NCBI RefSeq assembly: GCF_900167395.1
Contig: NZ_FUWK01000014.1
Location: 1 to 32,000, forward strand
Reading direction: 5' to 3'
Source of the DNA: Nitrosomonas europaea
GTDB lineage: Bacteria; Pseudomonadota; Gammaproteobacteria; Burkholderiales; Nitrosomonadaceae
DNA: 32,000 nucleotides
Positions 438-32,000 of this stretch are shown in pieces (position 1 is the first letter of the stretch; the number at the start of each line of letters is the position of its first letter). The notes under the pieces are model-generated. The model was not told the DNA's origin, did not search any database, and worked only from the letters and a program-made list of their open reading frames with translations. A program made the translations under genes and the position numbers.

Positions 438-1226
438 TTAGCTGTTCTTGCGACGGCGAGTAGCTGTCATACCAAGCAGGCCTAATCCCAATATCGCCAG
501 AGTTGCGGGCTCAGGTACATTGTTAGTGTCATCACCACCACCACCAGCAACACTGCCAAAACCATCCAGATAGACATAACCCCAGTGTCCAGTAGGCTGG
601 CAATCAGCCGCTACGAGGGACAACATGAAATCATGGCCTTTCAGTGTGTCGTTGATATTGAGCGTCTCGATTTGCCAGTCTTGGGTGTAGTAATTACCAC
701 CACTTAATGAGAAGCGACTGTCTACGCCACTTCCGCTAGAAGCGGCATTATATTCCCGGGTAATAAGATCAATGCCGTCTGTAAGATCAGTTAATACCAG
801 TTTGAAGGTGGCGGCGTCATTGACACCATGTGCACCCAGCAGAACGGCTTTCCATACAAAGTTGATGCTGTCTTCCGTGTAGTTGGTGACGGTCTGCGTG
901 ATTGCGGAAGCATAGCCACCCCAAGTGGTGTCTTCGATACGGGCACTGTAATTACCGGCATACACGGTGCTGCCAAACGCGGCTCCAACATTGGGATCAA
1001 TGGTGCCAGCGCTAATTATTTGCGAATGCATTGCATAGTTATCATTGGCAAATACCCAGTCTGGCGTCAGGTTGGCGTTATTGATACTGGCACGATAAGC
1101 TGAGTTTGAAACTGTCCAGCCGTTGAAGTTACCAGTTTCGAAACCTCCATTGACGAAGGGATCGGCGTGCGCGGCTGATACCAGCAGTGTGGAGGCTGCC
1201 AGAGTAAGAGCAAATTTTGTTTTCAT
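438..1226 (-). CDS. PEP-CTERM sorting-domain secreted protein with a CBM-like N-terminal domain
   Basis: 262 aa. Signal peptide MKTKFALTLAASTLLVSAAHA. NGGFETGNFNGW motif typical of CBM4_9-like modules. C-terminal VPEPATLAILGLGLLGMTATRRRKNS is the PEP motif plus TM helix plus Arg cluster (exosortase sorting signal). Confidence 0.85.
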   Translation of the reverse strand: MKTKFALTLAASTLLVSAAHADPFVNGGFETGNFNGWTVSNSAYRASINNANLTPDWVFANDNYAMHSQIISAGTIDPNVGAAFGSTVYAGNYSARIEDTTWGGYASAITQTVTNYTEDSINFVWKAVLLGAHGVNDAATFKLVLTDLTDGIDLITREYNAASSGSGVDSRFSLSGGNYYTQDWQIETLNINDTLKGHDFMLSLVAADCQPTGHWGYVYLDGFGSVAGGGGDDTNNVPEPATLAILGLGLLGMTATRRRKNS

Positions 1227-13922: not shown

Positions 13923-13968
13923 TGCGACAATTTGTCGCATTTTCAGCCGGCCAATTTGTGAAGATAAT
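13923..13968 (+). promoter_or_regulatory. Operator-promoter module, copy 1, upstream of FecI-like sigma gene 1
   Basis: Perfect 8-1-8 palindrome TGCGACAATTTGTCGCA (13923-13939). It is followed by TTTTCA (-35-like, 13940-13945), a 17-nt spacer and GATAAT (13963-13968). The same architecture recurs at 27466 and, on the minus strand, at 31644. Confidence 0.6.
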
Positions 13969-14025
13969 CTGCACATCGCAATGTGTGCTGATTGTTTCAG
14001 ATTCTATTTCTCAAAGGCCATTTCC

Positions 14026-14571
14026 ATGCAGGAATCCTCTGCCGCCGATACGGGGACGGCGGTCATCGATGCGTTGTATCGCGAACATCATCGCTGGTTG
14101 CTTATGTGGCTCAGAAAAAAACTGGGTTGTCCGCAGAATGCTGCCGATCTCTCGCACGATACTTTCGTTCGATTGCTCTCGTTGCAGGAAATGCCTGTAC
14201 TGCGAGAACCGCGTGCCTACCTGCTGGTAACGGCCAATCGGCTGATGATCAACCTCAACCGGAAGCATAAAGTCGAGGCGGAAACCCTGCACAGCATTGC
14301 TGCACTGCTTTCAGAACGCACAGAGCAGGATGTCGCTCATGTTGCTGCAGTACGTCAACTGCTCGAAGCGACCGTGCTGATGCTGATCGATGGACTGGAT
14401 GAGCGATCACGCCAGGCTTTCCTGCTGGCGCGCGTCGAGGATATGACCTATGCGGAAATTGCTGAAACGATGCAAGTCTCGATCAGTCGGGTCAAGCAAT
14501 ATCTCGTCAAAGCACTCGCCTACTGCCATGTTCACCTGCATCAGCTCAAGGAAGATGTATGTCTGAAGTAA
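14026..14571 (+). CDS. fecI: ECF sigma factor, FecI-like (iron-starvation group)
   Basis: 181 aa from ATG 14026, collinear with E. coli FecI as recalled. Region 2 is ALYREHHRWLLMWLRKKLGCPQNAADLSHDTFVRLL; the region 4 HTH is MTYAEIAETMQVSISRVKQYLVKA. Confidence 0.9.
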   Translation: MQESSAADTGTAVIDALYREHHRWLLMWLRKKLGCPQNAADLSHDTFVRLLSLQEMPVLREPRAYLLVTANRLMINLNRKHKVEAETLHSIAALLSERTEQDVAHVAAVRQLLEATVLMLIDGLDERSRQAFLLARVEDMTYAEIAETMQVSISRVKQYLVKALAYCHVHLHQLKEDVCLK

Positions 14572-15485
14572 CGGATCACCATACCGTTTCCCTGAGTGAA
14601 CAGGCGGCCGAGTGGGTCGTGCGGCTGTCGGACAGCCAAATCAGCACCGCACAGCAGGCTGATTTCGAAGCCTGGCTGGCGCAGGATATCAGGCATCGTG
14701 AAGCCTACGAACAGATCAGTCGCCTCTGGCAAAGCGTCACGCCGCAACGGCGCAGAAAGCACCGACCAGCCGGGTTGCTGGCCAGTATCGTACTGGTACT
14801 GATTGGTATTTACTGCCTGCCGTTATCGACGTGGCTGGCAGATGAACGAACGGCAACGGGAGAAATTCGCCAGGTGGCATTGCCTGACGGCAGTACCATC
14901 ACGCTGGATAGCGATTCTGCAGCCGATGTCGTCTTCGATACTCACGCACGCCGCATCATTCTGCATCGCGGCCGCATATTTGCGGCAGTGGTTCCGGATG
15001 CAGCAGAGCAGGGTGCTCATCACCGGCCCTTCATCATCGAAAACCGTGATGGAACTGCCCAGGCACTGGGTACCCGTTACATTGTTGAGCAGACCGGCGA
15101 TCACAGCCGGGTCAGCGTCGTGGAGTCGAGTGTCAATGTAACCAGCCGTGACCGGCCGGATCAGTCCATTACCGTGTACAGCGGTCAGAGTATACGTTTC
15201 GACAGTGAGCAGATCCATGGCCAGGAACCGATCCCGCCCGCTGCAGCGAGCTGGGTGCAGAGCAGGCTGGTTTACCGCAATGCGCCACTCAGCCAGGTGA
15301 TCGATGATCTGGCCAGATATCGGACCGGTTTTTTGAGAATCAGCGGGGCCGCTGCACAGCTTCGCTTTACGGGTGTGCTGCCAGCTGATGACCCCGATAC
15401 TGCACTCAAGATTTTGCAGCATGCCCTGCCAATCGGCATCGATCGCTACACCCGGGTACTGATCTGGATCAACCTGCAAACCTGA
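14559..15485 (+). CDS. fecR: FecR-like transmembrane anti-sigma factor / signal transducer
   Basis: 308 aa, overlapping the fecI stop by 13 nt. N-terminal anti-sigma domain (AAEWVVRLSD...FEAWLAQD..HREAY), one TM helix (LLASIVLVLIGIYCL), and a periplasmic FecR domain plus a C-terminal domain. Confidence 0.9.
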   Translation: MSEVTDHHTVSLSEQAAEWVVRLSDSQISTAQQADFEAWLAQDIRHREAYEQISRLWQSVTPQRRRKHRPAGLLASIVLVLIGIYCLPLSTWLADERTATGEIRQVALPDGSTITLDSDSAADVVFDTHARRIILHRGRIFAAVVPDAAEQGAHHRPFIIENRDGTAQALGTRYIVEQTGDHSRVSVVESSVNVTSRDRPDQSITVYSGQSIRFDSEQIHGQEPIPPAAASWVQSRLVYRNAPLSQVIDDLARYRTGFLRISGAAAQLRFTGVLPADDPDTALKILQHALPIGIDRYTRVLIWINLQT

Positions 15486-15659: not shown

Positions 15660-15830
15660 GCCAGAGATCGGCTGAAATATAACCTATGTGCCACTTCCTG
15701 CTTTCTGGATCGCCACGTGATTGACAGTGGTGAATTTAAAAATCATGTAATCAGCACTGCCCGGTTTTCCGGCTCGTGTCTCATGGATAACAGAAGCACA
15801 TTTTTTACCGACCAGACACAGGGAGTTTTC

Positions 15831-18329
15831 ATGATTATAAAAATAATTTCGTTATATCACGGCTTTTTGTTTGGATTGGTGCTGGCTGCCGGCCTGTTCA
15901 TCTCGGCCAATGTTGCTGCGCAGTCTGCCGTCACTCAGCAAACGATTGCAATCGATATTGCCGCACAGCCCCTCGAACAGGCGATCACGCAGCTTGCCAC
16001 CCAGGCAGGTTTGCTCATCGGCGTTGATGTCAGTCTGGTTGCAGGTAAACAGGCTCCTGCACTGAATGGGCGCTTTACTCCCCTGCAGGCGATCGGGCAA
16101 CTGCTCAAAGGCAGCGGACTCACCGTAGTCGAGAATGCACCCGGGCGCTACACACTGGAAGCTGCCCCCGCAGGGCACACGAACAGTAATGCAGAGGCAG
16201 TGACTTTGCCGGAAATGAAAATAACCAGCGTGATCGATCCTGATGCGCCGGATAACCCAAGTTACCAGAAAACAAAAGCTTTTTCAGCCACAAAAACCGA
16301 TACATCGATCATGGAAACACCGTTTTCAGTGCAGGTAGTGCCTCGTGCCGTCATGGATGACCAGAAATCGACCAAAGTGAAGGATGCGCTGGAAAACGTC
16401 AGCGGTGTGCGCCCGCAGCCATCGTTAGGTGGCGGTGGCGGCTTCATCATTCGCGGCTTTAGAACCGGGAATATTTACCGCAATGGTCTTTTATCCAGTG
16501 AAGGATTTTTTGGCGATTTCGACGCCAGCAATCTGGACAGCATTGAAGTATTGAAAGGCCCTGCGCAACTGTACGGGCGCACTGAGCCGGGTGGACTGAT
16601 CAGCGTTATCACCAAAAGGGGACTGGAAATCCCCTATTATTCGGTAGAACAGCAGTTTGGCTCTTATGATTATTTCCGGACACAATGGGATGCAGGCGGG
16701 CCCGTTACGGAGGACAAAAAATTGCTGTACCGGTTTTCGGGTGCCTACCAAAGCAACAATTCGTTCCGTGATTTCATTTCCGGGGACAGGAAAGTATTCA
16801 ATCCCAGCCTTACCTGGCGGCCAACGGATGCCACCGATGTGACGATTGACATCGAAGGTACCGAGAAATTTGCTTCTGCTGACTTTGGTATTCCGGTGAT
16901 CGGCAATCGCCCCGCGCCGATTCCGATCAGTCGTAATCTGGGCGATCCCAACACGCCGACAGGTGATCAATCGAGTGTGAAGGTCGGCTCCGAAATCAAC
17001 CATCGTTTCAGCGAAAATTGGGCGATACACCACCGCTTTCTGGCCAGCCTGACTGATGGGTCAACTACCTTTGTGAATCCTGCGCCCGCGTTCAACGCAG
17101 TCGCTGCATTGAACCCGGCTACCGGGTTGTTGCAACGTAATATCTTCACCCAAAACAGTGAACAGGAGCATTATGCAACCAATCTGGATGTTACCGGCAA
17201 ATTTGACCTGGGGTTCAGTCGTCATCAAGTATTGGTAGGATTTGATTTTTACCGCACCTACAATAAATACGGAACAAAAGGGCAATGGATTGTTCCTGAT
17301 CCCAATTTAGCAATCAACATCTACAATCCATATCCCAGCTACGGTATTTCGCAATCAACTTTCGATACAGCTTTCCTGACCAGTTCAGCGCCGGGTACCA
17401 ACTTCAGCGTAATTTACAACAACTGGTATGGTGTTTATTTCCAGGATCAGATCACCTTGTGGGACAAGTTGCATATCATCGGTGGCGGTCGCTATGACTG
17501 GGCGGAAACCGGGCGCGGCAGAAGTGACAACTTCGATACAGCAGATTCTCTGGTCAAGCCAAATATCCGTAAAGATCAGGGTTTCAGTCCCAAGGCCGGC
17601 ATTTTGTACGAGCCCTGGAAAGAACTCAGCATCTACGGTAGCTGGACTACATCATTCGGCGCCAATAACGCACCGGCGGCCGACGGAAGAACTTTCGATC
17701 CGCAAACTGCAGAGCAATTCGAAGCTGGTGTCAAAACCCAACTGTTTGACCGCCGTCTGACAGGAACACTGGCGTATTACCATCTGACCAAAGACAATAT
17801 TCTGGTCAACGACCTGTCAACAGCCGACCCGTTCGACAAGATCGCCAACAAGCAGCGCAGCCAGGGGATCGAACTGGACATATCGGGTTATATAACAGAC
17901 AGCTTTAGCGTGATCGCCAGTTACGCCTTTACTGACACCCGCATCCTCAAAGACTATTCTGGCGCTACAGCGGGCAATCGGCTTGCCAATGTGCCTAAAC
18001 ATGCTGGCAGTGTCTGGCTGCGATACGATGTGAAAAAATTCGCTCCACTCAACGGTTTGAGTTTCGGTTTGGGCGTTTTCGCAGCTGGAAAGCGGGAGGG
18101 GGATGTCCAGAATACCTTCCAGTTACCCGGCTATGCCCGCCTGGATGCGTTTGCTGCCTACCGGATGAAGCTCGGCCCGACCCGTCTGACTGCGCAGATC
18201 AACGCACGGAATATTCTTGACAAACGCTACTACGAATCGACTGATCCTGATAGTAATGTCGCGCCCCGACTGGGTGTCTATCCCGGTGCTCCGCTGACCA
18301 TTCTGGGTTCCTTGCGTCTTGAATATTGA
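15831..18329 (+). CDS. TonB-dependent siderophore receptor/transducer with an N-terminal signalling (STN) extension
   Basis: Start at ATG 15831 (SD GGGAG; signal peptide MIIKIISLYHGFLFGLVLAAGLFISANVAAQ). STN domain: IDIAAQPLEQAITQLATQAGLLIGVDVSLVAGKQAPALNG...LLKGSGL. Plug: ETPFSVQVVPRAVMDDQ...IEVLKGPA. Followed by a long beta-barrel ending GSLRLEY. Confidence 0.92.
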   Translation: MIIKIISLYHGFLFGLVLAAGLFISANVAAQSAVTQQTIAIDIAAQPLEQAITQLATQAGLLIGVDVSLVAGKQAPALNGRFTPLQAIGQLLKGSGLTVVENAPGRYTLEAAPAGHTNSNAEAVTLPEMKITSVIDPDAPDNPSYQKTKAFSATKTDTSIMETPFSVQVVPRAVMDDQKSTKVKDALENVSGVRPQPSLGGGGGFIIRGFRTGNIYRNGLLSSEGFFGDFDASNLDSIEVLKGPAQLYGRTEPGGLISVITKRGLEIPYYSVEQQFGSYDYFRTQWDAGGPVTEDKKLLYRFSGAYQSNNSFRDFISGDRKVFNPSLTWRPTDATDVTIDIEGTEKFASADFGIPVIGNRPAPIPISRNLGDPNTPTGDQSSVKVGSEINHRFSENWAIHHRFLASLTDGSTTFVNPAPAFNAVAALNPATGLLQRNIFTQNSEQEHYATNLDVTGKFDLGFSRHQVLVGFDFYRTYNKYGTKGQWIVPDPNLAINIYNPYPSYGISQSTFDTAFLTSSAPGTNFSVIYNNWYGVYFQDQITLWDKLHIIGGGRYDWAETGRGRSDNFDTADSLVKPNIRKDQGFSPKAGILYEPWKELSIYGSWTTSFGANNAPAADGRTFDPQTAEQFEAGVKTQLFDRRLTGTLAYYHLTKDNILVNDLSTADPFDKIANKQRSQGIELDISGYITDSFSVIASYAFTDTRILKDYSGATAGNRLANVPKHAGSVWLRYDVKKFAPLNGLSFGLGVFAAGKREGDVQNTFQLPGYARLDAFAAYRMKLGPTRLTAQINARNILDKRYYESTDPDSNVAPRLGVYPGAPLTILGSLRLEY

Positions 18330-18421
18330 GCCTGGGTAATTCAACAAATTGGGCAGGATGTCATCCTGTGAAGGTAATGATCCCATCGCGATCATTCATT
18401 TTATTTTGGAGGACGAAAGAA

Positions 18422-19639
18422 ATGACGATTCAAAACACGTTGACAAAAATTTTCCCGGTCGGGTTGCTTGTATGGTTCTGCTGGTCGCTGCCAGTGAGTG
18501 CAGAAACTGGCCAGCCCGGGTTTCCAATACAAGAAATCACCGTTCCGGCCAGTGAAGAGAGTAAGCAGCATCATTTGGCGAAAACGGATGACGGCCGCCT
18601 GATCCTCAGCTGGGTCGAAAGCGACGGGCAAAACAGCACGGTCCGTTTCGCCATTCGCGAGGGGCAGGGCTGGTCGCCTGTACGTACCGTGACCTCAGTC
18701 GACGGCAAGCTGGGTGACCCGCCCGTTGTATTCGGTCTCGACGATGGCAGTCTGGCGGCTGCCTGGATGCCCTATGCCAAAGGCGGAAAAAGCAAATATG
18801 CGGCAGACATTTTCCTGGCTCGTTCGCAGGATGGTGGCTTGACGTGGAGCAAGGCGTTCAAACCTTATGGTGAATCGGCACGTATCTACGATGCGCAAAT
18901 GTCGCTGACGGCGTTGCCAAATGCCCGTATCGCGCTGGTCTGGACCGATATGCGCGAGACAGGTGATCCCGGGAAAAACGATCGCTATCAACTGATGGCC
19001 ACTGTGCTTGCGAAGGGGCAACAATCGGCAGGCACGGAGCTGAGGCTGGATGATGATATTTGCTCCTGTTGCCGTGCATCTACCACTGCTGAAGGAGAGA
19101 GCCTGTTAACGGTTTACCGCGATCATAGCCAGGGCGAAATACGTGATACCGGCGCTGTGCGCTGGGATACAGACGGCAAGGTGCAAGCACTCTCTGCCCC
19201 GGGTGATGGCTGGCGTATCGAAGGTTGCCCAAGCAATGGCCCGGCGGTTGATATGTCCGCTTCGTCGGTAGCCTTAGCCTGGTTTTCCGCTGCTGACGAT
19301 AAAGGCCGTTTCAAAGTTGCTTTTTCCACAGACGGTGGTAAAGGTTTCACTAAACCGTTCGAAGTCGATGACGATGCCAGAGGTTATGTCAACGTAGCGT
19401 TGCTGAGCACCAATGTTGCGCTGGTCAGCTGGCGCAAGAGAGCGGGGCCGGAAGATGAACTTCGTATTGCGAAAGTGACAACGGATGGTATCAGCCGGCA
19501 AACCGCTATTTATCAGGGAGATTTTCCGGGTTGGCCCAGTAAATATCCGGGCATGATAGTCCTCGATCACCAGGCTTTCGTTGCCTGGACTGATCCGATA
19601 AAGAAAAAAGTGCGCCTTGTCGCGGTAACGCTTGATTAG
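18422..19639 (+). CDS. Secreted BNR/Asp-box (sialidase-like) beta-propeller protein with a Cys cluster
   Basis: Start at ATG 18422 (SD GGAGG; signal peptide ...CWSLPVSA/ETG). Asp-boxes SQDGGLTWS and STDGGKGFT. Repeated strand pattern ending in W: LILSW, LAAAW, IALVW, ALAW, ALVSW, FVAW. Cys motifs DDICSCC and EGCPSNGP. Confidence 0.6.
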   Translation: MTIQNTLTKIFPVGLLVWFCWSLPVSAETGQPGFPIQEITVPASEESKQHHLAKTDDGRLILSWVESDGQNSTVRFAIREGQGWSPVRTVTSVDGKLGDPPVVFGLDDGSLAAAWMPYAKGGKSKYAADIFLARSQDGGLTWSKAFKPYGESARIYDAQMSLTALPNARIALVWTDMRETGDPGKNDRYQLMATVLAKGQQSAGTELRLDDDICSCCRASTTAEGESLLTVYRDHSQGEIRDTGAVRWDTDGKVQALSAPGDGWRIEGCPSNGPAVDMSASSVALAWFSAADDKGRFKVAFSTDGGKGFTKPFEVDDDARGYVNVALLSTNVALVSWRKRAGPEDELRIAKVTTDGISRQTAIYQGDFPGWPSKYPGMIVLDHQAFVAWTDPIKKKVRLVAVTLD

Positions 19640-19913: not shown

Positions 19914-19963
19914 GGAACACATTTTCTGTTCAGTGACGGGAGGTTCCTGTGACTGCAGGAACA
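19914..19963. promoter_or_regulatory. Cluster of four GGAACA/TGTTCC half-sites in the XRE/PepSY divergent region
   Basis: GGAACA (19914-19919), TGTTC (19927-19931), GTTCCTG-N6-CAGGAAC (19943-19962) and GGAACA (19958-19963). This gives two dyads in the 204-bp intergenic region. Confidence 0.3.
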
Positions 19964-20067
19964 GAAGCACTCAGCCTGCAATCAGGCTGTCAGGCCGTGT
20001 TTCTGAAATTTATTACAACCATGTCCGGTTTCAGCTGACTCAAACGTCTTATATAGAGAAGAGATCG

Positions 20068-21390
20068 ATGAAGACTTCAATGATGCTTTTATTCCGTAAT
20101 CCGTTTTCAGGGCTTAGAAAAATGGTACCGACACGTTCTTTTTGGGTTTGGCTGCACCGCTGGGCTGGGCTGATCATGGCCGCTTTTCTGATCATCGTGG
20201 GGGCGACGGGCAGTCTGCTGGCGTTCTACCCCGAACTGGAACGCCTGATCAATCCCCATATTTACCCCAGGCAAGTTCTGGAGAAAAAACTGGATATGGC
20301 GACGCTTGCGGAACTGGCGGAGCAGCGGGTGCCTGCCGGCAGAGTGAATGGGGTGTTGATGGAGGCCAATCAGGAAGCTACTCTGATCTCCATGGATGCC
20401 CGTCCGGATAATGCCGATCCACCGAACAAGCTTGGATTTGATCAGATGATCGTCGATCCGTATACCGGTGAAGAGCTGGCTCGCCGCCAGTTTGGCGAGA
20501 TTTCGGAAGGCATGATCAATTTCATGCCCTTCATTTACAAACTGCATTATGCGCTGGCGCTAGGCAAGTTCGGGGTATGGGTATTGGGGATTTGTGCTCT
20601 GATCTGGACGATCGATTGTTTCGTCGCGTTTTATCTGACCCTGCCGCAGCGACGCAGATCCGTGACCGCACCCGCATCCGGTAATCATGGCAACTGGTGG
20701 CGGCGCTGGCAGCCGGCCTGGAAGATTCGCTGGCACTCGGGCAGCTACAAGCTCAATTTCGATCTGCACCGTGCCAGCGGATTATGGCTATGGCCGGTTC
20801 TGCTCATTTTTGCCTGGTCCAGCGTCTACATGAATTTATGGGATACGGTCTATACCTGGACAACCCGGGCAGTGATGGAATACAAGGCGCCCTGGACAGA
20901 GTTTTCAAAACGGGAAATTCCTCTGGCGGAGCCTGGGGTGGATTGGCGGCAGGCTCAGCGCATTGGCGAACAGTTGATGAGTGAGCAGGCGAACAAGCAT
21001 GGTTTTGCAGTCGAGCAGGTTATTGCCCTGAGACTGGATCGTGGAAACGGTACTTATCAGTACATTGTGCGCAGTTCAAAAGAGATCCAGGATCGGCGCG
21101 GCAGAACGAGCGTATTTTTTGATGCTGATACGGGTGAACTCAAACTGGCATTGCTGGCGAGCGGCCAATACAGCGGCAATACCGTGACGAATTGGCTTTT
21201 TGCGCTGCACATGGCCAATGTATTTGGATTGCCGTACCGTATTTTTGTCTGTGTGCTCGGCCTGGTTATTGTCATGCTGTCAGTAACCGGCATCATCATC
21301 TGGATCAGGAAACGGGCAGCGCGCCTCAGCCCGAAAAATCATCAGTACGATTCGCGCTACCTGAGGCCATCGGTACATCGCGATTCATAG
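20068..21390 (+). CDS. PepSY-associated TM-helix protein (PiuB/FoxB-like putative ferric-siderophore reductase)
   Basis: Start at ATG 20068 (the track ORF starts at GTG 19933). There are four predicted TM helices, each with a conserved His: WLHRWAGLIMA, YKLHYALALGKFG, FDLHRASGLW and LFALHMANVFGLPYR. Confidence 0.85.
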   Translation: MKTSMMLLFRNPFSGLRKMVPTRSFWVWLHRWAGLIMAAFLIIVGATGSLLAFYPELERLINPHIYPRQVLEKKLDMATLAELAEQRVPAGRVNGVLMEANQEATLISMDARPDNADPPNKLGFDQMIVDPYTGEELARRQFGEISEGMINFMPFIYKLHYALALGKFGVWVLGICALIWTIDCFVAFYLTLPQRRRSVTAPASGNHGNWWRRWQPAWKIRWHSGSYKLNFDLHRASGLWLWPVLLIFAWSSVYMNLWDTVYTWTTRAVMEYKAPWTEFSKREIPLAEPGVDWRQAQRIGEQLMSEQANKHGFAVEQVIALRLDRGNGTYQYIVRSSKEIQDRRGRTSVFFDADTGELKLALLASGQYSGNTVTNWLFALHMANVFGLPYRIFVCVLGLVIVMLSVTGIIIWIRKRAARLSPKNHQYDSRYLRPSVHRDS

Positions 21391-27465: not shown

Positions 27466-27511
27466 TGCGACAATTTGTCACATTTTTCGGTCCGGAGAAA
27501 GACAGTATGAT
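27466..27511 (+). promoter_or_regulatory. Operator-promoter module, copy 2, upstream of FecI-like sigma gene 2
   Basis: TGCGACAATTTGTCACA (27466-27482, one change from copy 1). It is followed by TTTTTC, a 17-nt spacer and TATGAT (27506-27511), the same offsets as copy 1. Confidence 0.6.
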
Positions 27512-27546: not shown

Positions 27547-28047
27547 ATGACAATTACCTATTCCGGCGATGAACTGTTTCTTCAACTGCGCGGTGATCTG
27601 CTGAATTATCTGTGTCGCAAGCTGAGCAAAGATGAAGCAGCCGATATACTTCAGGAAATCTATCTGCGATGGCGCAGGCAGGATATCTCGAGTATCGAAA
27701 ACCCGCGCGCCTTCCTGTTTACCGTTGCGCTCAATCTGATCCGGGATCAGGCACGCCGGCAGGCGCATGTGCAAACCTACGCCAATACCATGCAACACCT
27801 GTTTCAGGATAAACCTGCGGACTATGATCTGGCACAGCATTGTGACGAACGCAGACAAATAGAATATCTGCAGCAGGCTCTGGATCAGTTGCCGGAAAAT
27901 GTACGCCATGCTTTTCTTCTTTTTCGCCTCGATGGTTTGACATTTGCTGAAATCGCACTGCAGATGGGTATTTCAAGCAAATCCGTGGCACGCTACATTC
28001 AGCACGCCAGCGAGCACTGCCTGACTGCTCTTGCGCAATATCGGTGA
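27547..28047 (+). CDS. fecI: ECF sigma factor, FecI-like (second copy)
   Basis: 166 aa. Region 2 is DEAADILQEIYLRWRR...PRAFLFTVALNLIRDQARR; the region 4 HTH is LTFAEIALQMGISSKSVARYIQHA. Confidence 0.88.
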   Translation: MTITYSGDELFLQLRGDLLNYLCRKLSKDEAADILQEIYLRWRRQDISSIENPRAFLFTVALNLIRDQARRQAHVQTYANTMQHLFQDKPADYDLAQHCDERRQIEYLQQALDQLPENVRHAFLLFRLDGLTFAEIALQMGISSKSVARYIQHASEHCLTALAQYR

Positions 28048-28115: not shown

Positions 28116-29099
28116 ATGCACCTATCAAACAGTCCGAATTCGCATGACCCTGATGCACAGGCACGATTCTGGTTCGCACGGCAGCAGGGTCAGACTTTGT
28201 CGGAAGCGGAACAGCAGCAACTGGCTGAATGGCTGGCTGCCAATCCACTGCATCAGGATGCCTGGCGGCGTGTGGAGGAGGACTGGCTGGCAATCGACCG
28301 TTATCGTCATGCACTGAATGATGAGTTGAAAAAGGCACGCCGTAACCGTCCCGGACAGCATAAAGCGGCCTTTCAACTTAAACGACGGGCGGCAGCTGCA
28401 GCTCTGTTGGTGGCAGTATGCATTCCTGTGCTGTATCAGGGCATGACCGGAACGACAACATACTGGAACACCTTGAAAGGTGAACAGCAGCAGATCACCC
28501 TGGCCGGTGGCTCCACTCTGAATCTGGATACTGCAACGCGTATCACTGTCACGCAGAACTGGTTCACACATCATGTCCAGCTGCATGAAGGTGAAATCTA
28601 TCTGGAGACGGCATCATCCGACTGGCATACTTTGAGAGTGAGTGCGGAGCATTACGAAATTCGTGATATCGGCACACGTTTTTCGGTCAGGTATATCCCT
28701 GATCAGTTCATGGTCGAAGTTGCTGAAGGTACGGTTGAAGTAAAAAAACAGGGACAGCTGGTGTTACTGCAAGCGGGTGAAGTACTTTCCATCATTACCG
28801 GCAGTAATGAATGGAGGCTGGCGGCACTGCCGGCAGGGGATATCGCTCACTGGCGCAAAGGTCTGCTGGTATTCAATGCACACCGGCTGCATGACGTATT
28901 ACACGAAATCGCACGCTATCATACGGTTCAATTCGATCTGGCCGATTCCGCCATTGGCGAGATACAGGTCAGCGGTCGTTTCAAGCTCGATGAGCTCGAT
29001 ACCAATCTGCAAATCATCGCCGATACACTGAAAATCAATATCGAACACCCGGCACCCGGCCGTTACAGGCTGGGTGCCTTGCGGCAATCAACACGCTGA
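28116..29099 (+). CDS. fecR: FecR-like transmembrane anti-sigma factor (second copy, no adjacent receptor)
   Basis: 327 aa. SD GGAG. N-terminal domain ARFWFARQQGQTLSEAEQQQLAEWLAANPLHQDAW, TM helix AAAALLVAVCIPVLY, a FecR domain and a C-terminal domain (LLVFNAHRLHDVLHEIARYH). Confidence 0.88.
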   Translation: MHLSNSPNSHDPDAQARFWFARQQGQTLSEAEQQQLAEWLAANPLHQDAWRRVEEDWLAIDRYRHALNDELKKARRNRPGQHKAAFQLKRRAAAAALLVAVCIPVLYQGMTGTTTYWNTLKGEQQQITLAGGSTLNLDTATRITVTQNWFTHHVQLHEGEIYLETASSDWHTLRVSAEHYEIRDIGTRFSVRYIPDQFMVEVAEGTVEVKKQGQLVLLQAGEVLSIITGSNEWRLAALPAGDIAHWRKGLLVFNAHRLHDVLHEIARYHTVQFDLADSAIGEIQVSGRFKLDELDTNLQIIADTLKINIEHPAPGRYRLGALRQSTR

Positions 29100-29210: not shown

Positions 29211-29834
29211 TTATTTGAAATGTCTGATACGGGTATATTCTCCTTCAGTTTTGAGCGTAATCGTCATCGGGGTGGATGTCCGGTTTCGCCAGAACCACCC
29301 ATGATCACCGTCAAAAGCTGCTTCTAAGACGCCTTCCCGCATTTGTCCGGTCCCCTTGCTGTAACTATGGTAGTTGATCTTCAGTTCTTTTGAATCTCCA
29401 TGCTGATCAAAAACAGCTGTTCCACCATTAGTCCGCCAAACGTAGTGAACTTTACTTCCCTTTGTCATCGTCACCTTGATCTCAGTACCTTGATTTGGGG
29501 CAAGCGTTATCTTTTTTTCATGACTCATCTCTGATTTTGGAGCAAGCGGCAGAGATTCTGTTACTGCTGTTACCGCTTCAGATAATTCGATCTGCAGGCT
29601 GGCAGCCGCATTCGCCCGATCTGCAGTTGCTTCTTCTGTCAGAGAAACTTTGATTTCTCCCATTCTTTTCAGACCGGTGATTTCACCGAAACCGGTTGGA
29701 TCGATACCGTATTCCGCAGGCATTACAACAGTGACGAGTAAAAATATCGCAGTCAGTAATGCAATGACGGTAGATCTGATCAATCTGCCGGTTGAGGGTA
29801 TCTCATGAGTTGAAGGTATGTTTGCGTTATACAT
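29211..29834 (-). CDS. Membrane-anchored periplasmic protein of unknown function (beta-rich C-terminal domain)
   Basis: 207 aa. N-terminal anchor LIRSTVIALLTAIFLLVTVVMPAEYGIDPTG. C-terminal domain: KKITLAPNQGTEIKVTMTKGSKVHYVWRTNGG...DGDHGWFWRNRT. SD AGGAAA. It starts 20 nt after the HupE/UreJ stop, so the two genes are co-transcribed. Confidence 0.6.
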   Translation of the reverse strand: MYNANIPSTHEIPSTGRLIRSTVIALLTAIFLLVTVVMPAEYGIDPTGFGEITGLKRMGEIKVSLTEEATADRANAAASLQIELSEAVTAVTESLPLAPKSEMSHEKKITLAPNQGTEIKVTMTKGSKVHYVWRTNGGTAVFDQHGDSKELKINYHSYSKGTGQMREGVLEAAFDGDHGWFWRNRTSTPMTITLKTEGEYTRIRHFK

Positions 29835-29854: not shown

Positions 29855-30538
29855 TCAGATAGTGCTGAATAAAATGAAATGGCCTGTAATCTGGTATCCC
29901 ATCAAGAGGAAGCCGAGCATCATCATGAATGTATTGGTGTTATAGGCGTGGTTCATGAATTTTCCGGATTTCCTCCAATATGCAATTGCGATCAGAATGG
30001 CCGCCAGTGCCAGAATTTGTCCGATCTCGACACCGATATTGAAGAAAATGAGATTTGGCAGGAGTCCATCAGCCGGTAATTCGTACTCCAGGATCTTGGT
30101 GGCAAGGCCAAAACCATGAAACAGTCCGAAGATAAAAGTGGCAATCTTTGTATCAGGCTGAAAACCAAACCAGCGCTGAAAGGCTCCCATATTGTCCAGA
30201 GATTTGTAAACGATGGAAAATCCGATGATTGCATCGATCAGATAAGGGCTGACAGCAACCTCAAACAGAACACCGGATAACAGCGTAATGACATGGCCGG
30301 CAGCGAACAGCGTGACATAAATACAGATGTCCTTCAGTCGATACAAAAAGAAAATCACACCCAGCAGAAAAAGCAGATGATCGTGACCGGTCATCATATG
30401 TTTTGCGCCGAGATAAATAAAAGGTATCGGCAATATGCCGGTACTTTCCAGGATATAGCCCTTGTCACCCTCGGTGACACCATGCGCAGTAACATCAGAA
30501 GTAACTCCAAAAATTACTGCGATAAAAAGAGCCTTCAT
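29855..30538 (-). CDS. HupE/UreJ-family metal (Ni/Co-type) transporter
   Basis: Start at ATG 30538 gives the signal peptide MKALFIAVIFGVTSDVTA, with a His at the predicted mature N-terminus. Signature HMMTGHDHLLFLLGVIFF, plus FGLFHGFGLA. Six TM helices. The track ORF from 30610 adds 24 non-signal residues. Confidence 0.8.
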   Translation of the reverse strand: MKALFIAVIFGVTSDVTAHGVTEGDKGYILESTGILPIPFIYLGAKHMMTGHDHLLFLLGVIFFLYRLKDICIYVTLFAAGHVITLLSGVLFEVAVSPYLIDAIIGFSIVYKSLDNMGAFQRWFGFQPDTKIATFIFGLFHGFGLATKILEYELPADGLLPNLIFFNIGVEIGQILALAAILIAIAYWRKSGKFMNHAYNTNTFMMMLGFLLMGYQITGHFILFSTI

Positions 30539-30573
30539 ACATAAACAAGTCAACACGCCATGCTCCACAGGAG

Positions 30574-30595
30574 ATGACATTTTCATTTCAGTCAT
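30574..30595 (-). promoter_or_regulatory. Dyad ATGAC-N12-GTCAT just upstream of the HupE/UreJ start
   Basis: The plus strand reads ATGAC (30574-30578), attttcatttca, GTCAT (30591-30595). The dyad lies 36-57 nt upstream of ATG 30538. Confidence 0.3.
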
Positions 30596-30821
30596 GCAAA
30601 TTGTCTCCATGAATTACAGTCCGTGGATCCGGAATTTCCGTAAACCGCGGCGATGGAACGGGTGCTGCAACAGTACTGGTTCTGTCAGGAATATAGCCTT
30701 TCCCCTGTCAAGTATCCGAGACAATGATTACCAGATGAAACCGGTAATACTGAGACAGGACATACAACAGACTGAAATCGCACTGGCGCTGACTGAGCCG
30801 TCAGCACACCCGATTGTGAAA

Positions 30822-31235
30822 TTAGTACCTGATTTCTAAAGAAGCGGTATTTCGAGGAGGGCGGAACGGTAAATCAAGAGTTGATTCAGGAATGCCGGCA
30901 GGAAAGAATCCGGGGATATTTTCCTTTCCCGGGAGAGATGGAATAATCGGTAGCAAGATAAAATAGAAAGGCTGAAACTGCCCGGCTGCATGCAGGATTA
31001 AATGATCTGTGAAATCCGGATCGTTATCGAGGGTTTCGTCATGATGCTGATGAAACCCTGTATCTGCTGCGTGATCATGGTACGAATGATGATGATCGAA
31101 TCTATGCGATACATGGAAATGATCAAGCTCATGTTTGAAGATTTCCTGATGGAATGACCAGGCAACTGCATTTGTCAATAAACTGACAAACAGTATCAGA
31201 AGAATAAAATTGTCGGTCATATATCTCTTGCCCAT
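30822..31235 (-). CDS. Small His-rich exported/anchored protein (putative periplasmic metal-binding accessory protein)
   Basis: From ATG 31235: MGKRYMTDNFILLILFVSLLTNAVA (signal/anchor). Then HQEIFKHELDHFHVSHRFDHHHSYHDHAADTGFHQHHDE, with 15 His in 39 residues, and a Pro-rich C-terminus ending PFRPPR. The start is uncertain (31235, 31220, or GTG 31331 in the track). Confidence 0.55.
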   Translation of the reverse strand: MGKRYMTDNFILLILFVSLLTNAVAWSFHQEIFKHELDHFHVSHRFDHHHSYHDHAADTGFHQHHDETLDNDPDFTDHLILHAAGQFQPFYFILLPIIPSLPGKENIPGFFPAGIPESTLDLPFRPPRNTASLEIRY

Positions 31236-31403
31236 GGCAGCAAAACTGTATACACACCCGATCAGATCGTCAACTTTTCTGATCTGATAAAAGGTGGTTT
31301 GATGATTGCACTGATTTTTCCTGAAAATCACACTGAAAACAGCTGACTAAATCCTGACGACAGTGGACGAAAAGTGACATAAAAACAATGGCAGGAGAAG
31401 TAG

Positions 31404-31644: not shown

Positions 31645-31710
31645 TCGCTTATTTGGCGAGGCTTTTGGCTGAAAAGAAGTGCAAAATTCGAGTTGAAATG
31701 TATCGAGATA

Positions 31711-31741
31711 GGAACGGTCAGCTAAGCTGACCGTTCCTTTT
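31711..31741 (+). terminator. Hairpin with a short T-run and no obvious plus-strand gene
   Basis: GGAACGGTCAGC-TAA-GCTGACCGTTCC is a 12-bp perfect stem (31711-31737), followed by TTTT. Confidence 0.45.
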
Positions 31742-32000
31742 CACATCATCCGGCATGCGAGTTCACAATCGCTGCACGGGCGAACGGAGAACATCCTGCT
31801 CGCTTCATGTCCCGGTTTTAAAATGTGCAATGTGGTAAGAAACTGCACCTAAGCAGGTGCCTCATTTCTGTTTGGCCTGTACGATATCTTCTGATATACC
31901 CTGATAACTCTTTGAAAATCATACATATACACATAGAAAAAGCTCAGAGACTTCAGTAACGCTGCTGTATGCAAAGGTGGGCATGATGTAAAGGTGTCCG

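Follow-up and report, generated by a model that had tools for sequence, protein, structure and literature searches.

The dyad and its promoters in the Nitrosomonas europaea window

The window analysed here is a stretch of 32,000 nucleotides of Nitrosomonas europaea DNA (contig NZ_FUWK01000014.1, positions 1 to 32,000 of the forward strand), and the element in question is a 17-bp inverted repeat, hereafter the dyad, with the consensus TGCGACAAT(T/A)TGTC(G/A)CA. The dyad is found at three places in the window, 13923-39 (+), 27466-82 (+) and 31644-28 (-), each time directly before a predicted promoter:

13923-13939 (+): dyad site 1, TGCGACAATTTGTCGCA, a perfect 8-1-8 palindrome; predicted site of a RegA-type regulator, at -52 to -36
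13940-13968 (+): predicted fecI1 promoter of sigma-70 type; -35-like TTTTCA at 13940-45, 17-nt spacer, -10 GATAAT at 13963-68
27466-27482 (+): dyad site 2, TGCGACAATTTGTCACA
27483-27511 (+): predicted fecI2 promoter; -35 TTTTTC, 17-nt spacer, -10 TATGAT at 27506-11
31644-31628 (-): dyad site 3, TGCGACAATATGTCACA as read on the minus strand
31627-31599 (-): predicted promoter of a non-coding unit; -35-like TTCTCA at 31627-22, 17-nt spacer, -10 CATAAT at 31604-31599
31592-31404 (-): small-RNA-like transcription unit of approximately 189 nt, promoter to terminator

The first-pass annotation had described these dyads, and we found their coordinates and sequences to be as it gave them; the hexamer beginning with TT and the nATrAT hexamer, with their 17-nt spacer, are indeed seen at all three sites. 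Sites 1 and 2 lie before genes for FecI-type extracytoplasmic function (ECF) sigma factors and site 3 before a non-coding unit, both as had been proposed; the sigma genes are followed by fecR genes, and the unit has no conserved open reading frame (ORF) and ends in a terminator. Transcription is predicted to start near 13975 (fecI1), 27518 (fecI2) and 31592 (non-coding unit). With the -10 hexamer set at -12 to -7, the dyad occupies -52 to -36 and is centred near -44. A simple consensus promoter scanner scored the promoters of sites 1 and 3 at 9/12 each and missed that of site 2 because its -35 hexamer, TTTTTC, is very weak, agreeing with TTGACA at two of six positions. When up to three mismatches to the dyad pattern were allowed, these three places were the only matches in the 32 kb, compared with a mean of 0.18 in dinucleotide shuffles (n=100), none of which equalled the observed count.

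A fourth dyad, again the perfect TGCGACAATTTGTCGCA, lies approximately 2.6 kb past the window end (L127 6688-6704 (-); genome 591827-591843). It is followed by TTCCAC, 17 nt and CATAAT and precedes the next fecI gene, NE0547; the module of dyad and promoter hexamers is therefore present on all three fecI genes of this region of approximately 40 kb. Orthologous copies of site 1 with the same flanks were found in N. eutropha (L083) and Nitrosomonas sp. HPC101 (L024), and the site 3 dyad recurs unchanged on an orthologous metagenome contig of Nitrosomonas (L194).

Two hairpins were also seen close to these sites. One, GCACATCGCAATGTGTGC, lies at the predicted transcription start of fecI1 (13971-13988 (+)). 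N. eutropha (L083) has it with a single change (GCATATCGCAATGTGTGC), but Nitrosomonas sp. HPC101 (L024) does not have it; a 5' stem-loop and a second operator are both conceivable roles. The other, a strong hairpin (GGAACGGTCAGC/GCTGACCGTTCC, 31710-31745), lies between the site 3 dyad and the divergent receptor gene NE0546, and has a T-rich tail on the plus strand only, with no plus-strand gene upstream of it.

Exact protein matches assign the window to N. europaea ATCC 19718 (AL954747.1). To place the sites among the annotated genes, window coordinates were converted to those of this genome by adding 557,199, NE numbering was fixed by the gene names in a published expression table, and gene families were assigned by Pfam and NCBIfam matches. 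The genes are:

NE0528 hflB to NE0532 cysG: the genes before NE0533
ORF from 13981, ATG at 14027 the likelier start (+): NE0533, FecI-type ECF sigma factor
14559-15485 (+): NE0534, fecR
15717-18329 (+): NE0535, siderophore-type TonB-dependent receptor with an STN signalling domain
18326-19639 (+): NE0536
19933-21390 (+): NE0537, PepSY_TM
NE0538-40: efflux system of the resistance-nodulation-division (RND) type
27547-28047 (+): NE0541, FecI-type sigma factor
28116-29099 (+): NE0542, fecR
29211-29834 (-): NE0543, 207 amino acids, no family match
29855-30610 (-): NE0544, HupE_UreJ_2
30822-31331 (-): NE0545, His-rich protein of 169 amino acids with HHHSYHDH and HQHHDE runs

NE0545, NE0544 and NE0543 resemble an operon for metal uptake; situated downstream of the terminator of the small-RNA-like unit, they may be co-transcribed with it by read-through. 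No gene for the dyads' regulator is present in the window, whose remaining genes are housekeeping or efflux genes.

Occurrence and geometry of the module in other genomes

A single scan of a species-representative genome collection for the dyad plus two following T returned at least 119 loci, with approximately 35 chance matches expected over the whole collection. The 119 listed loci, of 8 kb each, hold 122 unique sites (or 124 sites), and the counts of sites and neighbours given below refer to these listed matches. They come from Nitrosomonas, Nitrosospira, Methylotenera, Gallionella, Nitrotoga, Rhodocyclaceae and Methylococcaceae, and further from Porticoccaceae, SAR86, Pseudoalteromonas, Thiomicrorhabdus and others; the module is widespread in beta- and gamma-proteobacteria. 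A full-text literature search for exact dyad strings gave unrelated matches only.

The geometry seen in the window recurs in these genomes. An nAnnnT hexamer begins exactly 23 nt past the dyad at 102 of the 122 unique sites, compared with at most 17 at any other offset, and the fixed -10 offset is therefore no coincidence of three copies, in agreement with what the first-pass annotation had argued from the window. The same holds for dyads that the search pattern had not selected: 81 further dyads were found in the fetched DNA (at most two mismatches in the 14 half-site positions), and 59 of them have the hexamer at this distance on one side, where 5.4% per side would be expected as background. 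The -35 hexamers are generally poor, 65 of 124 agreeing with TTGACA at three or fewer of six positions although the search pattern forced two T, and the -10 hexamers are good, 94 of 124 agreeing with TATAAT at four or more. All dyad copies are intergenic, lie upstream of genes and point toward them. On the dyad's far side no -10 geometry was found in the listed loci, and a symmetrical divergent promoter driving regB, the kinase gene described below, was therefore rejected.

Natural variants of the dyad such as TGCGGCA..TGCCGCA, with GCGGC/GCCGC half-sites, also occur. Some sites are double: at L134 5547-5578, L186 660-691 and L114 286-317 a second dyad overlaps the first by 2 nt, the two having a half-site boundary in common (TGTGACAAATTGTCGCGACAATTTGTCACA), and in another locus (L019 6070-6114) two complete dyads, 26 bp apart start to start with 8 bp between them, serve divergent promoters. 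None of the 119 strict-motif matches listed is from Pseudomonas, Burkholderia or Ralstonia, genera that are heavily sampled and possess RoxSR/RegAB. It may be that the sharp dyad and its iron regulon are confined to one subfamily of the RegA system, or that those genera lie outside the listed matches.

Genes downstream of the module

To describe what the module controls, we examined the first downstream genes, of which 28 of 78 in the listed matches encode TonB-dependent receptors. Other targets are tonB-exbB-exbD, fecI-fecR, PepSY_TM, MbnP-MbnH, SCO1, PCuAC and DUF1775 genes. Genes for iron and copper acquisition predominate in the regulon, which is therefore genuinely, if indirectly, linked to metal physiology. 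A metagenome scan for the Nitrosomonas-type variant, defined as a dyad with GATAAT at the fixed distance, yielded 78 loci, and among these promoters 12 of 59 non-redundant first genes encode ECF sigma factors. The association of the dyad with fecI genes, which had been noted in the window, thus holds at scale.

The commonest Nitrosomonas target is an operon for a protein of approximately 250 amino acids (no Pfam match), one of approximately 157 amino acids, a TlpA-like redoxin and DUF4266 (L042 1342-3641 (-), L036, L051, L115 and approximately 25 metagenome loci, among them L135, L136 and L142). We also observed two Zur-like Fur-family genes divergent from dyad promoters, one betaproteobacterial and one from Methylococcales (L033 1390-1857 (+), L114 826-1329 (+)), and metalloregulator genes may themselves be members of the dyad regulon.

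Small-RNA-like units driven by the dyad

Many module promoters drive short terminated units with CU-rich segments, and the unit at site 3 is of this kind. Its unpaired CU-rich segment, UUGCUUCCCUCCUCUACUUCUGCC (31470-31447), lies just before a terminator composed of the stem GCCUGUCC/CGACAGGC (31449-31413) and a run of eight T (31411-31404), and its fold has a z of -3.39, with none of 200 shuffles folding as well. The ortholog on L194 has kept the dyad and the 5' part of the unit as well as its CU-rich segment and its terminator, the last with a compensatory double change (TC/GA to CT/AG). This ortholog lacks an internal 58 nt that hold the sole small ORF (21 codons) of the N. europaea unit, and it has no NE0545 homolog downstream, which argues for a stand-alone non-coding gene and not a leader. 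With a predicted promoter of its own, an intrinsic terminator, conserved sequence and structure and no conserved ORF, the unit has the features of a gene for a putative trans-acting small RNA. Among the fetched loci its only homologs were the N. europaea copies and this one ortholog.

Rfam gave no match at gathering thresholds for the whole window, and permissive scans of two small-RNA regions returned sub-threshold noise only. A riboswitch or a leader of NE0545 was considered for the site 3 unit and rejected, there being no Rfam match and no NE0545 downstream of the ortholog.

In Methylococcaceae the dyad drives a second family, of approximately 95 nt (L053 3610-3707 (+) and 14 related loci), which in most loci is divergent from regB-regA. 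Its core, AGUUG.GUUAUAU.CUUCCUA, is invariant, and five pairs of its terminator covary; the sole Rfam match, obtained with a Methylobacter member, is a sub-threshold one to mmgR/suhB (24 bits).

The dyads probably bind a RegA-family response regulator

In our reading, the gene neighbourhood is the decisive clue to the regulator's identity. In 22 of 65 cases the divergent neighbour of the dyad encodes a histidine kinase of approximately 460 amino acids, each time followed by a response regulator of 182 amino acids, and 31 of 124 sites have regBA-like genes within their 8-kb locus, compared with approximately 0.2% estimated for a random single-copy operon. The response regulator combines a receiver domain (PF00072) with a Fis-type helix-turn-helix (PF02954) and matches the B. 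pseudomallei RegA structure 3rqi with E = 3e-45 and the PrrA effector domain 1umq with E = 4.5e-12. Its recognition helix, MHRR[TS]LQRKL, forms part of the motif GN[IV]SxxARxL[NG]MHRR[TS]LQRKL, which is present in the 27 regulators examined, the partial one of L023 ending after MHRR. The kinases have a 6TM_PilS-like membrane domain, and 27 of 27 examined carry the hallmarks of RegB, namely GGxxNP[FILM] (NGxxNPF in L123), an H-box of the AHE/D/QxxTPL type and the redox-box Cys. The best NCBIfam matches of the two proteins are NF033791 and NF033792, the models for ActR/PrrA/RegA and ActS/PrrB/RegB.

The association was also found in the reverse direction. Four of four contigs that were fetched via the RegA-like protein alone (L130, marine; L211, Methylotenera mobilis; L212 and L213, Gallionella-like) carry dyads at most approximately 100 nt from regB, where chance would give approximately 0.03 sites per 10 kb. 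These dyads show the 23-nt geometry toward the divergent gene, which is a TonB-dependent receptor or a DsrE-PCuAC-redoxin operon.

Furthermore, the dyad agrees with what has been published for regulators of this family. The consensi for RegA (SSGNVRDNHYSNCSS), PrrA (YSCGGC(5)GWCRMA) and RegR (GNGRCRTTNNGNCGC), as quoted in PMC5506826, are alphaproteobacterial and degenerate; the dyad GCGACAATTTGTCGC agrees with them at 15/15, 11/12 and 10/11 specified positions, respectively, and its variants with GCGGC reproduce the PrrA half-site. The first-pass annotation had matched the dyad to none of the operators that it considered.

Taken together, these results show that the dyads are genuine promoter-linked sites, well past anything expected by chance, and make it probable that they are bound by a redox response regulator of the RegA/PrrA/ActR family and not by a metal sensor. 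Three points of this reading are ones that we infer: binding by RegA in N. europaea, activation, and a redox signal from the quinone pool. A shared metal-responsive regulator had been proposed at first; one regulator's shared site at about -52 to -36 of sigma-70-type promoters with a 17-nt spacer, co-regulating FecI-type sigma genes and a non-coding unit, is retained from that proposal, and metal sensing, probably the wrong regulator class, is not, given the RegA consensi and the regBA linkage.

Proposed mode of action

The dyad, TGCGACA-N3-TGTCRCA, would be the recognition site of a RegA-family regulator of approximately 180 amino acids, composed of a receiver and a Fis-type helix-turn-helix and partnered by RegB, a membrane kinase that would sense quinone or redox state. 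Within the module the dyad is followed by an abutting, usually weak -35, 17 nt and a good -10, and a dimer bound near -44 would most likely activate sigma-70 RNA polymerase in a class-II-like manner. Activation, and not metal-dependent repression, is indicated because the spacing to the -10 is invariant and the -35 hexamers are weak. The fixed site, weak -35 and recognisable -10 appear to be those of a class II-type activator-dependent sigma-70 promoter, for which CRP and FNR at -41.5 and lambda cI at PRM, at -42, provide the known activator positions; the regulator is assumed to make contact with alpha or sigma region 4. In N. europaea the module would head at least three fecI-fecR operons (NE0533, NE0541 and NE0547) and the CU-rich small RNA of approximately 189 nt, and a redox two-component system, not Fur, would thus stand at the top of these siderophore cell-surface-signalling cascades.

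Published expression data bear on this proposal. Deletion of regA in Methylomonas sp. DH-1 lowered the expression of a TonB-dependent receptor gene (tbdr), tonB-exbBD and feo to 3-23% of wild type, and RegA of this organism is an activator under reducing conditions (PMC13274454). RegA of R. capsulatus controls approximately 40 iron-uptake genes (PMC5359404). In a chemostat RNA sequencing study of N. europaea that compared O2-limited with NH3-limited growth, NE0541 was 4.0-fold higher under O2 limitation (p = 0.051; PMC6967387 Data Set S1), NE0547 was 2.4-fold higher (p = 0.007), and NE0545, NE0544 and NE0543 were 2.8-, 2.3- and 2.1-fold higher (p = 0.001 to 0.036; PMC6967387).

Several observations weigh against binding and activation by a RegA-family regulator in N. 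europaea. The proteins encoded beside the dyads miss the NCBIfam equivalog cut-offs (185-209 bits vs 250; 225-248 bits vs 350), for which reason we name them RegB/RegA-family (COG4567-type) proteins and not equivalogs of the alphaproteobacterial ones. The consensus match is by itself weak evidence, because RegA-family consensi are degenerate and because RegA of Acidithiobacillus ferrooxidans did not fit the alphaproteobacterial consensi (PMC5506826). No regBA genes were found near any Nitrosomonas dyad in approximately 0.8 Mb of Nitrosomonas DNA around dyads, and the 120 best proteins in searches for regBA homologs, among them searches started from Methylotenera and from a Gallionellaceae contig, were all from Methylophilaceae or Gallionellaceae. 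Likewise, among the metagenome loci with Nitrosomonas-type promoters regBA was present only on a Gallionellaceae contig and on a high-GC contig with a TonB-dependent receptor similar to Rhodocyclaceae genes, and literature searches for RegBA in N. europaea or ammonia oxidisers found nothing. The N. europaea regulator gene must therefore lie elsewhere or, less likely, have been replaced by that of a protein with the same specificity. In Methylomonas, chromatin immunoprecipitation (ChIP) found RegA only at the feo promoter and not at tbdr or tonB, which its authors regard, the ChIP being negative there, as indirect targets (PMC13274454). RegA of R. capsulatus represses iron-uptake genes (PMC5359404), an effect of the opposite sign to the activation proposed here. 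Finally, under O2 limitation NE0533 was 1.5-fold lower and NE0534 slightly lower, and many unrelated genes shift approximately 2-fold in the same table (PMC6967387), so that the O2-limitation data give only weak support.

Alternative regulators

That regBA was not found near Nitrosomonas dyads leads to the first alternative, in which regBA was lost or replaced in Nitrosomonas and the dyad is read by another RegA-like Fis-type regulator (NtrX-like or an orphan), the same module then answering another signal, such as iron or copper. We consider this improbable. No regBA was found beside a Nitrosomonas dyad, whereas Methylococcaceae, Methylophilaceae, Gallionellaceae and others have it next to theirs, but the Nitrosomonas sites have the same sequence, flanks and spacing as those in lineages with adjacent regBA. 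For a 17-bp site to persist at dozens of promoters, the specificity of its regulator must have stayed the same, and the RegA helix is almost invariant across the family.

The second alternative, that the dyad is the operator of a metal-responsive repressor that, when loaded with its metal, blocks the -35 of iron- and metal-uptake promoters, has slim prospects, whether the repressor is taken to be a Fur-family paralog (e.g. NE0730 or NE1722) or another metalloregulator. It would suit a regulon made up nearly entirely of metal-acquisition genes (TonB-dependent receptors, tonB-exbBD, fecIR, PepSY_TM, MbnPH, HupE and PCuAC) and the presence of two Zur-like genes divergent from dyads in L033 and L114. 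However, these two are the only Fur-family genes by Pfam FUR among 65 divergent neighbours, compared with 22 of 65 for the RegB-like kinase, and the dyad fits the consensi of RegA, PrrA and RegR. Its strictly fixed position abutting a weak -35 is typical of activators; Fur-type operators overlap promoters at variable positions. Moreover, deletion of regA lowers such genes in Methylomonas (PMC13274454).

Fur itself was examined at the level of its box. N. europaea has three Fur homologs, two of them of unknown specificity, which favours a metal repressor, and its Fur (NE0616) recognises an E. coli-like box, which does not (PMC3050691). The AT-rich core of the dyads scores 11-12 of 19 positions against the 19-bp GATAATGATAATCATTATC or the 7-1-7 Fur consensus, which falls inside the chance distribution, and 10-12 of 19 positions agree in the four N. 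europaea promoters, as they do in shuffled controls; the first-pass annotation was thus right that the dyad is unlike a Fur box. In the fetched loci, classical Fur boxes were no commoner downstream of dyads than in shuffled sequence, and a tblastn search of the loci with an approximate E. coli Fur sequence gave no match. With no enrichment downstream and 11-12 of 19 in the dyad, the Fur-box hypothesis was rejected. At one promoter, that of tonB-exbB-exbD in N. eutropha Nm24 (L054 ~969-987 (+)), a 17/19 Fur box (GATATTGATAATCGTTATC) lies just past the -10 in addition to the dyad, which suggests dual control of this operon.

That the dyad is part of an autoregulated promoter for FecI-type ECF sigma factors, or a dispersed repeat without regulatory role, is scarcely credible: three of the four N. 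europaea copies do precede fecI genes, but the hexamer 23 nt downstream is a sigma-70-type TAnnnT and not an ECF -10, the module also stands before TonB-dependent receptors, tonB, small RNAs and regB at loci with no fecI nearby, and every copy is intergenic, upstream of genes and facing them.

Implications of a possible RegB/RegA control

N. europaea has more than 20 sets of fecI, fecR and receptor genes, whose upstream control has been assumed to be Fur. A broader reading of our results, which we put forward tentatively and regard as rather unlikely, is that RegB/RegA and not Fur is the primary direct switch of iron and copper acquisition in ammonia oxidisers, methanotrophs, Gallionella and many marine gammaproteobacteria, driving FecI-type sigma genes together with undescribed RegA-dependent CU-rich small RNAs. 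The latter would include the N. europaea RNA of approximately 189 nt (31592-31404) and the Methylococcaceae family of approximately 95 nt beside regBA. Such small RNAs could mediate the so far unexplained 'indirect' effect that RegA has on tbdr and tonB expression in Methylomonas, a possible mechanism being the silencing of a repressor mRNA; they could also perform iron-sparing in place of RyhB/PrrF.

If a RegA-type activator site heads the fecI-fecR-receptor sets, iron acquisition in N. europaea, a key nitrifier, would be coupled to the redox state of the respiratory chain, i.e. to oxygen or ammonia supply, and such coupling bears on nitrifier behaviour at low oxygen. More generally, the results suggest a way in which nitrifiers and methanotrophs connect iron uptake with redox state. 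The RegA family of beta- and gamma-proteobacteria gains a sharp, scannable motif with a fixed promoter geometry, where earlier work in alphaproteobacteria and Acidithiobacillus gave degenerate motifs or none. The module also offers a testable explanation for the RegA-dependent iron genes of Methylomonas, and it flags candidate small RNAs under a RegA-type regulator in several environmentally important groups.

Comparison with known systems

The closest relatives of the proposed system are RegB/RegA, PrrB/PrrA, RegS/RegR and ActS/ActR, with whose sites the dyad shares the inverted GCGRC...GYCGC half-sites. As in the alphaproteobacterial RegB/RegA proteins, the regulator beside the dyad keeps the near-invariant helix and the kinase keeps the quinone motif, the H-box and the redox Cys. 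The target lists overlap as well: senC is a target of the RegA system in Rhodobacter, and SCO1/SenC- and PCuAC-type genes are likewise targets of the dyad. In contrast, alphaproteobacterial RegA-type sites have been described as degenerate, variably spaced and dissimilar between species (PMC5506826), whereas the dyad is a high-information 17-bp palindrome with a fixed 3-bp centre and a single position abutting the -35. The regulons differ too, that of the dyad being dominated by iron and copper acquisition and small RNAs, and not by photosynthesis, CO2 or N2 fixation or terminal oxidases. In Methylomonas DH-1 (PMC13274454) and R. capsulatus (PMC5359404), RegA controls the same classes of genes as the dyad (TonB-dependent receptor, tonB-exbB-exbD and iron transporters); unlike the present work, those studies define no binding motif for the iron genes, and they report neither FecI-type sigma genes nor small RNAs as targets (PMC13274454, PMC5359404).

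In its promoter architecture the module resembles the class II promoters of CRP/FNR and lambda cI, with which it shares a palindrome for a dimer at an invariant distance, a poor -35 and a good -10. It differs from those of CRP/FNR in being centred near -44 and not -41.5, and in its putative regulator, a two-component protein with a Fis-type helix-turn-helix.

Cascades of the fecIR type are known to be controlled by Fur, as for E. coli fecIR and for pvdS and fpvI of Pseudomonas. The dyad promoters share with these the arrangement of a master site on the promoter of an ECF sigma/anti-sigma pair that drives a TonB-dependent transducer with an N-terminal STN domain. Unlike the Fur-controlled cascades, they have no Fur box (10-12 of 19 positions, the chance level, in the N. 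europaea promoters), and the distance of their site to the -35, which it precedes, is fixed as for an activator, whereas a repressor operator would cover the -35/-10.

Small RNAs under redox or iron regulators, with C/U-rich anti-Shine-Dalgarno seeds, are known from FnrS, PcrZ, RyhB/PrrF and the alphaproteobacterial mmgR. Like these, the dyad-driven units are stand-alone genes of 80-190 nt from promoter to terminator with the site of a global regulator, and the counterpart of the seeds is an unpaired CU-rich stretch before the terminator; they differ in belonging to no Rfam family at threshold. The sites described here are thus best read as new members of a RegA/PrrA-family regulon, a known type of system, distinguished by a motif of unusual sharpness and by a geometry that is fixed and class-II-like.

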